Assembly (NCBI RefSeq): GCF_018389705.1
Contig: NZ_CP065581.1
Span: 540,001 to 572,000, forward strand
From: Mycoplasma mycoides subsp. capri
Lineage (GTDB): Bacteria > Bacillota_I > Bacilli_A > Mycoplasmatales > Mycoplasmataceae
Reading direction: 5' to 3'
DNA: 32,000 nucleotides
Shown: positions 9,732-13,393 of the stretch, one piece after another
Position numbering within the stretch: position 1 is the first letter of the stretch
Layout of the letters: each line of letters opens with the position of its first letter
Translations under genes and position numbers: made by a program
The notes under the pieces: model-generated
What the model was told of the DNA's origin: nothing
Databases searched by the model: none
What the model saw: the letters and a program-made list of their open reading frames with translations, nothing else

Positions 9732-10121
9732 TTGAATAAAAATAAGAAAATATTATCTAATAATTCAAAAATAAGTACAAGCCCCAAGCTTTTCAAAAAA
9801 GATATTTTTTTCAAAATTGCAATTGTACATAAATTGGATAATGGGTTTGATTTTAAATCATTAACAATTGAAGGTATAAAAGAATTTCATAATTTTATAA
9901 ATGAAATTTTAAATAAAAAGATGACCATTTCTCAAGTAGAAAATTTATATATGAGAAAGACTTCAAATCCATTTAATAATAGAACTGTAGATCAGCAAAT
10001 TGAAATTCGTGAAATCCATTTAGGAAAAAATAGACAACCTTTTAGATTATTTGGTTATTTTAATGATGATAATTATTTTGTATTAACTAAAATAGATCCT
10101 AATCATCTTTTTCATGAATAA
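9732..10121 (+). CDS. Orphan 129-aa protein, candidate cognate toxin of the Panacea-domain gene
   Basis: Track ORF with a TTG start 2 nt after the upstream TAA stop. GGTGA (9721-9725) provides a Shine-Dalgarno 6 nt upstream. There are no Trp and no TGA codons. The C-terminus IREIHLGKNRQPFRLFGYFNDDNYFVLTKIDPNHLFHE loosely recalls the RelE/ParE/Gp49-type C-terminal beta core. The start codon is uncertain; the next in-frame ATG is at 9921. Confidence 0.6.
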   Translation: MNKNKKILSNNSKISTSPKLFKKDIFFKIAIVHKLDNGFDFKSLTIEGIKEFHNFINEILNKKMTISQVENLYMRKTSNPFNNRTVDQQIEIREIHLGKNRQPFRLFGYFNDDNYFVLTKIDPNHLFHE

Positions 10122-10187
10122 TTTATAAAATAAATTTTATATCAAAATTTTTACTAATAAATATTAAAAAAACTAGTAATCAATAGA

Positions 10188-10230
10188 AAAAATAGTGTTA
10201 TTTAGATTTAATTCTATTAACACTATTTTT
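10188..10230. terminator. Bidirectional-type rho-independent terminator after the two-gene cassette
   Basis: A 13-bp perfect inverted repeat AAAAATAGTGTTA / TAACACTATTTTT (10188-10200 / 10218-10230) with a 17-nt loop. An A-tract lies upstream and a T-tract downstream. Confidence 0.55.
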
Positions 10231-10426
10231 ATTTTGTTTAATATCTAATATAATGTGTTTTTAAGCAAGTATAAGTTGTTTAAAAATATCAAATAAAATT
10301 ATCTCATTTAAAAGTTTATTTTTTAGAATTTTTATCAAAAACCATAGAGTTTTTATACACTAGTTTATTTTGTTATTTTTTAAAATAATATAATATAAAT
10401 GTGTTATATAAAGGAGTTATTAATTA

Positions 10427-13393
10427 ATGTTATTTTTAAAGCAAATTAGAGCCAGTGGGTTCAAATCATTTGCCGATCTTACAGTAATGGATTTTAATTA
10501 TGACATGACTGGGGTAGTTGGTCCAAATGGATCTGGAAAGTCAAATATTACTGATGCAATTAGATGAACTTTAGGAGAACAATCAACTAAAACTTTACGT
10601 GGAAGTAAAATGGATGATATTGTTTTTAGTGGAAACAATGAAAAAAAGGCAGCTGATGTTGCTGAAGTAACATTAGTTTTTAATAATACTCATGAAAACT
10701 TTTCATCAATCAAAAGTGATGTTGTTGAAATTACTCGTAAATTTGACAAAAATACTAGAGAAAGTGAATTTTATATTAATTCTACTAAATGTAAATTAAA
10801 AGATGTTCAATCTATTGCTTTAGAAGCTGGATTGACTAGATCAAGTATTGCTATTATTTCTCAAGGAACTGTTGCTAATTTTACTGAATCAAAACCTGAA
10901 ACTAAAAGAGAAATTTTTGATGATGCAGCTGGGGTAAGCAAGTATAAAAAAAGAAAAAAAGAAACATTATCAAAACTAGAAAAAGCAACTGAAAACTTAA
11001 CAAGACTAGAAGATATTGCAAAAGAAATTTCAAGAAGATTACCAAATTTAGAACGTCAATCTAAAAAGGCTTTAGAATATCAACAAAAAGTAAATGAACT
11101 AAAAAATATAGAACTATATATCTTAACAAAAGATCTAAAGGTTTTAGTTAACAGAATTGAAGAATTAAGAGTAGAAAAGATTGAATATGAAACTCAAATT
11201 AAAAAATTAACAAACGAAATTAATATGAGTCAAGAAGAAGTTAATTTAATTATTGATAAAGATTCAGAAGATAATCAAAAATTAGGTGAACTTAATTCTA
11301 AATTTAATTCAATAGTTGAAAAAATTGCTAATTTAAAAGTAAGAAAACAAAAAGCAGAATTTAAAGAACAAGAAAATCTTAACACAAAAGACCAAGATGA
11401 ATATAAAGCTGCTTTAATAAAAAAACAATTTGATGAAAAACAAATTAGTATAAAATCAGAAAAAGATAAGTTAACTAAAGCAGAAAATTCATTATTAGAA
11501 TTAAAAGATAAATACGACTATTATTCAAATAAATATAATGAAATTTATAGAGAAATTGAAACTATAAGAACAACAATTTCAAGAATTAGTATTCAAATTG
11601 AAGCAATAGAACATAATAAAAAAGCAGCGTTACAATCATATCAAGATGGAGTAAGCGCTATTTTAAATAATCAAAAACAAATTGGTGGAGTTGTTGGTGT
11701 TTTAAAATCACTTATTAATGTAAAAGAAGAATATCAAATTGCTATTTCAGTAACTGCTAGTGGTCATATGAATTCATTAGTTATGAAAACTGATCAAGAT
11801 GTTAAAAAAGCAATTGAATTTTTAAAGAAAAACAATAATTTAGGTAGAGTAACATTTTTACCACTAAATACTTTAACTCCTAATTTAATCAATCCAGTAC
11901 AAAGACAAATACTAGAAAAAAGTGAAGGATTTGTTGGATTTGCAAATGAACTAGTAGAATATTCAGAAACTATTTCAAAAGCAGTTGAATATGCTTTAGC
12001 AAGTATTATTGTTGTTCAAAGTTATGATGATGCTATTAACTTAGCAAAAAATACTAATTTTAGATTTAATATAGTTTCACTTGATGGACAAAGAATTTTA
12101 CCACATGGAGCTATTGTTGGTGGTTCAACTAGAAATGCTAATATTTTTACAAAACAAAATACACAAAATCAAGATAATAATTTAGAAGAATTAAAAAATA
12201 AAATTGAATTATTAGAACAAAAAGAAATTAGTAAAACTAAAGAAATAACTGAATATAAAACAGCAAATGATAGTTTAAGAGATCAAATTAACGATTTAAA
12301 TGGAACTATTAGAAACGCTAAAAATAACTTATTTAATTGAACTGAAAATTTAAAAGAGTTTTCAGATGAACATAAAAGTTTAACAGGAAGAGATTTATTT
12401 ACTGGTGTATATAGCAAGTCAGATGAATCTGAATCAATAATTTTAGCAAAACAAATTTCAGAACTTGAAATTCAAAGAGATGAAATTCAAATTGAAATTA
12501 ATTCAATTTCTTTTAAACGTACTCAAAGTATGGAAAAACAAAAAGAAATGAATTCTAAAAACAGTAAAAAAAGAGATGAATTGGATGAACTAAAAACTCA
12601 TGCTGGATCAATCAATACTGAATATAATGTTTTATTACAAAGAAGAATTACTATAATTGATCGTTTATCTAATGGATATCAAATTACTGAAGAAACTGCA
12701 TTAACAATGGAAGTTGAAAATATTGAAGATGAAGAAGTTGCAAGAGAAAGAATAATCGAACTAACAACTTATATTCAAAATATTGGTAATGTTAATATGG
12801 ACGCTATTGAAGAATATAAAAATGAAAAAGAGCGTTTTGATTATTATGATCAACAAATAAAAGATATTTATGATGCTAAAGAAAAACTAGAAAGCATTAT
12901 TTTAGATATTGATATTGCAATGGAGTCTCAATTTAAACAAATTATTGAAGATGTTAATAAAGCTTTACCAGATGTTTTTTCAAAAATGTTTGGTGGAGGT
13001 TATGCAGAATTAATTTATACAGATCCAGACAATATTTTAGAAACTGGAATTGATATTAAAATTTTTCCACCAGGTAAAAAAATTACAAACTTAAATTTAT
13101 TATCTGGAGGAGAAAAGTCTTTAGTTGCTTTATCAGTATTATTTGCAATTTTAAAAGCAAGACCTTTACCATTAGTAATTTTAGATGAAGCTGAAGCTCC
13201 TTTAGATCCAGTTAATGTTGAAAGATTTGCAAGATATGTAAGACAATTTTCACATAACACTCAATTTATTATTGTTACTCATAGAGAAGGAACAATGACT
13301 CAATGTGATTCATTATTTGGTGTAACAATGCAAACTAAAGGTATTACTAAAATCATTAACGTTAAATTAGTTGAAGCTAAAAACTTACACTAA
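10427..13393 (+). CDS. smc: Chromosome partition protein Smc (988 aa)
   Basis: ATG at 10427 follows AAGGAG (10411-10416). The N-terminus is MLFLKQIRASGFKSFADLTVMDFNYDMTGVVGPNGSGKSNITDAIRW(TGA)TLGEQS. Track ORFs 10610..12340 and 12530..13393 share this frame, and the gap is open. The gene has long coiled coils, a hinge, and a C-terminal LSGGEKSLVALSVLFA...LDEAEAPLD. Confidence 0.93.

Follow-up and report, generated by a model that had tools for sequence, protein, structure and literature searches.

In this study, a window of 32,000 nucleotides from Mycoplasma mycoides subsp. capri was analyzed, with the focus on panT (9732-10121, forward strand), which encodes a 129-residue protein of the MAG6450 family, and on panA (9274-9729, forward strand), which lies directly upstream and encodes a stand-alone Panacea protein (DUF4065/SocA-like; 151 residues from ATG 9274), the predicted antitoxin. 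We propose, with a probability of roughly 0.7, that the two genes form a translationally coupled PanA-PanT module. PanT would be a BECR/RelE-like endoribonuclease toxin of the YafQ type, with H96, R105, and H125 as its predicted catalytic residues; it would likely act on ribosome-bound mRNA and be neutralized directly by the Panacea protein, and the module would be a mobile, prophage-borne element, probably one of addiction or abortive infection, that was fixed at a site between rnc and smc. Both the pair and the RelE-like reading are already in the literature as predictions (PMC8832971, Dataset S1; PMC13621843). What is added here is the extent of the linkage between the two genes, an invariant triad with YafQ-like spacing, a significant profile bridge to the effector domains of NsnC and CARF-RelE, a conserved junction of Shine-Dalgarno-like sequence, stop codon, and TTG, the prophage contexts, and a set of truncated alleles.

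The proposal starts from what could be read directly from the data, namely family membership, gene linkage, conserved residues, predicted topology, prophage contexts, and homology to NsnC's C-terminal domain and to CARF-RelE. Translation with genetic code 4 gave an open reading frame (ORF) of 129 residues at 9732-10121 with a TTG start, no tryptophan, and no in-frame TGA, exactly as the first-pass annotation of this DNA had quoted it, and an NCBI record is identical to PanT over all 129 residues. The frame opens at 9720, and the sole standard start codon 5' of the block that begins at F27 is TTG 9732. Because homologues are conserved from F27 on in the alignments, ATG 9921, which had been named as the other possible start, was ruled out by the conservation of residues 27-63, and TTG 9732 is favored. 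An antisense ORF of 73 residues (9707-9928, reverse strand) was regarded as a by-product of AT-rich sequence.

When PanT was compared with NCBIfam, it matched NF046006 (MAG6450 family protein) at 116.1 bits (E = 9e-34; curated cut-off, 40 bits), with residues 27-128 aligned to profile positions 1-102 of 103; these residues are one domain that the profile spans end to end. A word-indexed search with PanT returned nine close clusters, which came only from the M. mycoides cluster, M. feriruminatoris, M. yeatsii, M. leachii, M. agalactiae, or M. bovis. By a full HMMER profile scan, 114 clusters at 50% identity were recovered, 53 of them with E < 1e-10, and all were single-domain proteins of about 105-176 residues, fragments aside. 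Further profile searching added Listeria monocytogenes, L. innocua, and Oribacterium, and relatives beyond the mollicutes were found in Listeria, Oribacterium, Erysipelotrichaceae, metagenome-assembled genomes (MAGs) of other Bacillota, and viral contigs. A scan of the plasmid collection for the family gave no matches. PanT had initially been taken for an orphan, for a possible mollicute-specific branch, and, outside its C-terminal core, for a protein that matches no family; the NF046006 match, the 114 clusters, and the relatives in other Bacillota and viral contigs overturn all three statements.

Conservation was then counted in a family alignment of 99 sequences with identity down to 22%. 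Three residues are invariant (99/99): H96 (codon 10017-10019), at the end of the strand 90-97; R105 (codon 10044-10046), at the start of the strand 105-110 in the 'FRLFGY' motif; and H125, in the C-terminal tail. The last of these closes the stretch D122-P-N-H125 (codons 10095-10106), in which D122 is present in 98 of the 99 sequences. L8, F27, F55, R75, G108, and D122 are conserved in at least 90% of the sequences, and R75, G108, and D122 in at least 94%. R75 (codon 9954-9956; 94/99) stands just after helix 2, and position 128 (codon 10113-10115) is histidine in 79 of 99; all of these codons are on the forward strand. The C-terminal motif EIHLG...FRLFGY...YFVLTKIDPNH, which the first-pass annotation had singled out, is present in PanT, and no other part of the family is as well conserved.

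The linkage of the family to Panacea genes was examined in 19 loci, comprising the window, six species-genome loci, seven further neighborhoods, and five IMG/VR viral contigs. In 18 of these, a Panacea gene (PF13274) lies directly upstream of the toxin homologue in the same orientation, and in these linked loci the two genes either overlap or are separated by at most 8 nt (2 nt in the window). The linked loci span Mollicutes, Listeria/Bacilli, Oribacterium, Clostridia-type and other MAGs, Erysipelotrichaceae, and IMG/VR contigs, and the GenBank phage Javan59 (Streptococcus) carries the identical panA-panT arrangement. In the window, the panA product matched SocA_Panacea PF13274 over residues 25-119 (Pfam, E = 7.6e-20) as well as PHROG 1281 (E = 6.8e-36); GTG 9265 is a possible alternative start for this gene. 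Moreover, the window pair has the configuration by which PanAT pairs were defined, a same-strand adjacent PF13274 gene within 100 nt of its partner (Kurata 2022). Guilt by association, which had been suggested as a means of checking the first idea, thus speaks for a toxin-antitoxin pair, and the Panacea partner proposed at that stage is present; only the description of the pairing as non-canonical was wrong, as this is a catalogued PanAT arrangement.

The pair is easily missed. The window has 22.8% GC, TGA is read as tryptophan, and long genes such as smc are broken up under translation table 11 and intact under table 4. The Panacea gene contains eight TGA codons for tryptophan and is therefore visible only under genetic code 4; a list of ORFs made with table 11 shows this gene, smc, and other genes of the window as fragments only. 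A standard-code pipeline would accordingly overlook the antitoxin and leave the toxin seemingly orphaned. In Javan59, the toxin homologue (MK448817.1, 40391-40765; locus L024, 4001-4375) has a TTG start, is 45% identical to the window PanT, and is without a CDS in GenBank, and its Panacea gene, 60% identical to the window PanA, is annotated as 'putative prophage protein ps3'. Under-annotation of the MAG6450 family is probably systematic and caused by the TTG start and the short length.

At the junction of the two genes (9721-9734, forward strand), a ribosome-binding-like GGTGAT (9721-9726) lies inside the 3' end of panA, followed by the panA stop codon TAA (9727-9729), 2 nt, and the TTG of panT (9732-9734), so that the GGTGAT stands 5 nt upstream of the start codon. 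A junction of the form GGAGAT-TAG-(0-2 nt)-TTG is also present in M. agalactiae, in an Erysipelotrichaceae MAG, and in Javan59. This conservation indicates translational coupling of panA and panT with a weak start codon.

The N-terminal tail of PanT (residues 1-25; 9732-9806, forward strand) is rich in lysine and serine, and had been judged disordered; residues 1-17 are indeed predicted to be so. A conserved motif, Leu8-(Thr/Ser)9, lies within this tail, with L8 in 92 and T9 in 62 of the 99 sequences and a consensus of K-L-T, and a second L-T motif often follows about 10 residues further on. The motif resembles a short linear binding motif, and the predicted-disordered tail is not free to vary. 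According to NetFlax, stand-alone Panacea antitoxins neutralize directly, one of them by holding the unstructured N-terminus of its toxin (PMC10440598). Because the Panacea protein of that validated PanAT pair contacts its toxin in this way, the Leu8-Thr9 tail is a candidate PanA-binding handle.

A structure of PanT was predicted with AlphaFold2 from the 99 sequences. The model had a mean predicted local distance difference test score (pLDDT) of 83.1 and a predicted template modeling score (pTM) of 0.75, with a core above 90 and residues 1-17 below 50. It contains a short strand near residues 26-30, helices at 46-61 and 66-73, and strands at 82-86, 90-97, 105-110, and 116-122, which is the RelE-type order of elements plus one extra strand. 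With nine sequences only, the model was poor (pLDDT 60.7) and Foldseek was uninformative. Conserved residues along the edge of the sheet and in the tail at the C-terminus (H96, R105, and H125) would fit the RNase branch of the RelE/ParE superfamily and not the ParE branch.

Evidence for such a relationship was obtained through intermediate profiles. The PADLOC model NsnC was matched by 64 of the 99 family members (best E = 1.2e-8) and the model CARF7--CARF_RelE by 16 (best E = 6.3e-6). These matches are collinear over about 100 residues, that is, over the whole structured domain, and they fall on the C-terminal effector domains of both models (NsnC, 181-280 of 284; CARF_RelE, 258-358 of 359). 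In addition, R105 and H125 stand 19-20 residues apart in 94 of the 99 members, and the corresponding distance in YafQ, between D67 and H87, is 20 residues in each of the 49 sequences compared; the last histidine is 4-5 residues from the C-terminus in both.

Several results weigh against the proposal, and the first group concerns the direct comparisons. When PanT was searched against Pfam, no hit was found at E ≤ 10, and no RelE/ParE-type Pfam family drew matches with E < 1 from more than one of the 99 members. Sequence profile searches of the PDB, with profiles of 9 and of 99 sequences, were negative for RelE-like chains. Pfam, PHROGs, and the PDB sequences yielded nothing of note either with PanT alone or with these profiles; matches to prolactin receptor, MICAL, and phage spike H, with E values of 0.17-0.4, were put down to chance. 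Alignment of profiles with hhalign against a 49-sequence YafQ alignment (PF15738) gave a probability of 0.05-0.1 in local, mact-0, and global modes, a negative that is weak in view of the narrowness of the YafQ alignment, whose sequences are all at least 54% identical to the first one (Neff about 2.7). Foldseek with the confident PanT model returned no hit with E < 0.1 in the PDB or BFVD, and HigB (6af4) and ParE1 (8c24) reached TM scores of 0.3-0.38 only. For all members of the MAG6450 family, RNase activity is a prediction. The RelE/ParE/Gp49-like core of the first-pass annotation thus found no significant support in any direct comparison, and the AlphaFold2 model, which shows the RelE-type order with an extra strand, gave no significant neighbor in the Foldseek search that the annotation had recommended; what does support that core is the set of NsnC and CARF_RelE matches and the invariant His-Arg-His (H-R-H) residues.

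A second group of adverse points comes from individual systems. In Mycoplasma sp. HU2014 (locus L004), an intact toxin homologue occurs without a Panacea gene, on a 2.5-kb contig flanked by insertion sequences (IS), where it is followed directly by a Fic/DOC gene (PF02661, E = 5.5e-22; 517-930 and 1002-1931, respectively). A Fic gene resembling this one is present some 2 kb downstream of the M. agalactiae 14628 pair (locus L002, 6286-7188). The sole tested pair of PanAT toxin cluster T1, from C. cadaveris, was listed as 'toxic' and 'mRNase', and its PanA failed to neutralize in E. coli, that is, it did not rescue from its T1 toxin there (PMC8832971 and its SI Table S1); this T1 protein (WP_074844970.1) is a possible member of the MAG6450 sequence family. 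Finally, in JCVI-syn3.0 the toxin homologue MMSYN1_0416 was scored as quasi-essential and the Panacea gene MMSYN1_0417 as non-essential (PMC13621843), the reverse of what a toxin and its antitoxin would be expected to show.

The idea that PanT is a RelE/ParE-like toxin paired with a Panacea antitoxin was already the center of the first-pass annotation and holds up, although the support is indirect: the direct RelE, ParE, YafQ, and HigB tests failed, and the linkage, the H-R-H residues, the intermediate profiles, and two prior papers speak for it. [quoted passage not shown] Both points would suit a protein of the same fold that is a free-standing RNase cutting tRNA, rRNA, or naked mRNA, and not a ribosome-dependent mRNA interferase. 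We regard this as unlikely, given that the positions of the catalytic residues in PanT mirror those of YafQ.

The contexts of panA-panT pairs are typical of mobile cargo. In an Erysipelotrichaceae MAG, the order is integrase, panA, panT, a divergent cI-like repressor (HTH_3 plus Peptidase_S24), and an antirepressor; at prophage ends, the order endolysin, panA, panT was found, and IS30-type and IS1595-type transposases lie near some pairs. The chromosomal site of the pair differs among M. mycoides (between rnc and smc), M. yeatsii, and M. agalactiae, and in the latter two the pair adjoins IS elements. In three lineages far apart from one another, Oribacterium and two metagenome contigs, a gene for an SDH_protease (PF01972, serine-dehydrogenase/ClpP-like) overlaps the start of the Panacea gene, giving three-gene operons of protease, PanA, and toxin (loci L010-L012, 2387-3430; L015, 1276-2445; L018, 1387-2430). 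This arrangement is intriguing in that SocA, the founding Panacea protein, delivers its toxin to a protease.

Truncated or frameshifted alleles of the toxin gene were found in M. capricolum (P0141, P0143, P0148, and P0149) and M. leachii (P0009). They keep the N-terminal half of the protein and lose the whole catalytic sheet with H96, R105, and H125, and their breakpoints fall at no fewer than three places, past the two helices (in two ways) and past EIHLG. Such independent truncations suggest repeated inactivation of a putative toxin. MAG6450 itself is a 'conserved hypothetical protein' of M. agalactiae whose transposon mutants are viable (PMC3179502, PMC4251992), and the truncated alleles and these mutants together are consistent with a dispensable toxin.

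These observations bear on the essentiality scores of the minimal cell. The window PanT is identical at 128 of 129 positions to the protein P0124 (ACU78383/ADH21889), whose accessions we take to be those of the GM12 and JCVI-syn1.0 proteins. From these accessions, the identity, and the gene order, we infer that panT is the orthologue of MMSYN1_0416. That a gene of this kind survives in the minimal synthetic cell JCVI-syn3.0 with a quasi-essential score is a puzzle. It would be explained if the protein had been domesticated in the M. mycoides lineage and supported growth, for example in RNA processing or ribosome quality control, with the Panacea protein as a regulator or a remnant. Besides the retention of MMSYN1_0416 and the contrasting scores of the two genes (PMC13621843), the location of the pair among core genes (fakA-plsX-rnc, pair, smc) and the intact copy without Panacea in HU2014 are in line with such a role. 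Yet the authors of the minimal-cell study themselves raised polar transposon effects near MMSYN1_0416 (PMC13621843), and insertions that are polar for the coupled toxin gene and for genes close by could account for the reversed pattern. Moreover, several strains of M. capricolum and M. leachii have truncated copies of the gene, it can be disrupted in M. agalactiae, and its differing sites beside IS elements in M. agalactiae and M. yeatsii, together with its presence as prophage cargo elsewhere, are the behavior of an accessory mobile gene. Domestication is, on balance, quite improbable.

A bolder, two-part extension of this thought is equally doubtful. The H-R-H RNase may have been co-opted in the M. 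mycoides lineage for growth-supporting RNA processing or ribosome rescue next to rnc, with Panacea as its regulator, in which case the quasi-essential JCVI-syn3.0 score would be real and not an artifact of polarity; and, secondly and less radically, the MAG6450 family may be the free-standing ancestor or sibling of the NsnC and CARF-RelE domains. If true, the latter would join a toxin of toxin-antitoxin systems, a CRISPR effector, and an anti-phage effector in one clade of H-R-H RNases. In the literature examined, no statement of a link among MAG6450, NsnC, and CARF-RelE was found.

That PanT is a ParE-type or other non-catalytic member, such as a gyrase poison, or an unrelated new fold that resembles RelE only superficially, is highly improbable: all direct RelE/ParE/YafQ comparisons failed, and ParE toxins share this fold as well as the 'yRi.Y' strand motif noticed in the first-pass annotation, but an invariant His-Arg-His with R75 and D122 across sequences as divergent as these argues for catalysis, as do the significant full-length profile matches to two RNase effector domains and the typing of the T1 representative as 'mRNase' by Kurata et al. 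(PMC8832971).

We therefore return to the coupled toxin-antitoxin module as the preferred reading, for which we infer toxicity, RNase chemistry, ribosome dependence, direct neutralization, and the trigger. The genes at 9274-9729 and 9732-10121 would form a two-gene type II toxin-antitoxin module. PanT would be a small alpha+beta domain built of a short strand, two helices, and a four-stranded antiparallel sheet, with H96, R105, and H125, together with R75 and D122, distributed over the edge of the sheet and the C-terminal tail. As YafQ, RelE, and Cami1 suggest by analogy, it would most likely cut RNA by metal-independent acid-base catalysis, in which the two histidines would serve as the acid and the base, with the transition state stabilized by the arginine. 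Its most probable substrate would be mRNA on the ribosome, so that translation would be stopped. Stand-alone PanA is predicted to bind and neutralize PanT directly, possibly via the Leu-Thr motif of the disordered tail, and coupled translation, with the ribosome-binding site within the last codons of panA and a TTG as weak start, would keep the output of toxin no higher than that of antitoxin. As a mobile module that is often found at the ends of Bacillota prophages, it would probably serve in addiction, abortive-infection defense, or both, and in the M. mycoides cluster it would have lodged between rnc and smc.

The flanking genes were examined as well. In the window, fakA/yloV, plsX, and rnc (8444-9142) lie upstream of the panA-panT pair (9274-10121, forward strand), smc (10427-13393) lies downstream, and relA/spoT is on the opposite strand. 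In Bacillus subtilis, rnc and smc are adjacent and co-transcribed (rnc-smc-ftsY). If the same applies here, the module would seem to have been inserted into a conserved operon, and to have split it, in the M. mycoides cluster. Between panT and smc, a terminator-like AT-rich hairpin with a U-run was found at 10182-10238 (forward strand), 60-115 nt past the panT stop codon; it folds at -16.9 kcal/mol (z = -4.4), and none of 200 shuffled sequences folded as well. A consensus terminator scan of the window reported no terminators and missed this hairpin because it demands at least three G-C pairs. A consensus scan for promoter-like sites was uninformative in DNA of 23% GC, with 15 sites found against 14.3 expected. 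The hairpin is relevant to the question whether a transposon inserted in the toxin gene might be polar upon smc, as proposed for JCVI-syn3.0.

The MAG6450 family is among the largest uncharacterized groups of Panacea-linked toxins. The activity of H96, R105, and H125 bears both on the effector mechanism of NsnC and on the role of a 'toxin' in the growth of a minimal genome.

When the window pair was compared with known systems, its closest counterpart was PanAT cluster T1 (PMC8832971), in which a stand-alone Panacea gene likewise comes first and the toxin gene second with a gap of 2 nt; no structural difference was apparent, and the two are the same entity. The mycoplasma entries in the part of Kurata 2022 Dataset S1 drawn on here give PanA|PanT pairs in M. 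feriruminatoris G5847, M. mycoides capri GM12, M. yeatsii, M. leachii PG50, and M. agalactiae 5632, each in the order A|T with a gap of 2 nt (16 nt in M. yeatsii), assigned to putative toxin cluster T1, and marked 'notest' (PMC8832971). Two T1 accessions, WP_040538495.1 (M. feriruminatoris) and WP_013447797.1 (M. leachii), fell within the MAG6450-family clusters and are 67% and 60% identical to the window PanT, respectively.

The JCVI-syn3.0 pair MMSYN1_0416/0417 resembles the window pair in its RelE-like reading and in having the same DUF4065 neighbor. MMSYN1_0416 was described as an interferase that is distantly RelE-like and has, besides an extra strand, a conserved histidine near the C-terminus, and HHpred matched it to GraT and YafQ, without statistical significance for RelE homologues such as GraT (PMC13621843). 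It adjoins the DUF4065 gene MMSYN1_0417, which that study treats as 'non-cognate' and DarG-like (PMC13621843), whereas the linkage found here and the PanAT literature show a pairing that is cognate and widespread.

Two effectors contain a domain homologous to PanT and differ in architecture. The C-terminal domain of Menshen NsnC, PB-BECR1, is like the MAG6450 family in its full-length profile matches and its H-R-H triad; the equivalence of the two triads is drawn from descriptions and not from a residue-level alignment. This RNase domain was reported to be YafQ-like, with an H-R-H triad and YafQ as its best structural neighbor (PMC12065111). NsnC is a protein of about 284 residues with an N-terminal inactive-PIN domain that works with NsnA (ParB-DUF262) and NsnB (ABC ATPase), whereas PanT is a single domain of 129 residues whose neighbors are panA, rnc, and smc. 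Cami1, a CARF-RelE effector of type III CRISPR, has a RelE part that is matched by the 16 family members noted above. Unlike Cami1, PanT is without a CARF sensor or a CRISPR context, the members of its family do not exceed 176 residues, and its control would be through a protein antitoxin and not through cyclic tetra-adenylate.

YafQ, RelE, and HigB (GraT) are like PanT in size, in its predicted topology of beta strand, two alpha helices, and beta sheet, and in having catalytic residues (predicted ones in PanT) where a strand ends and in a short tail at the C-terminus, and YafQ shares with it the 20-residue spacing from the second to the third catalytic position. PanT differs from these toxins in the absence of detectable sequence or profile similarity and of a significant Foldseek match, in its one extra strand and long N-terminal tail, and in the presence of R105 in place of Asp67 of YafQ. 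The antitoxins differ as well, with a Panacea protein for PanT as against DinJ, RelB, and HigA for YafQ, RelE, and HigB, respectively.

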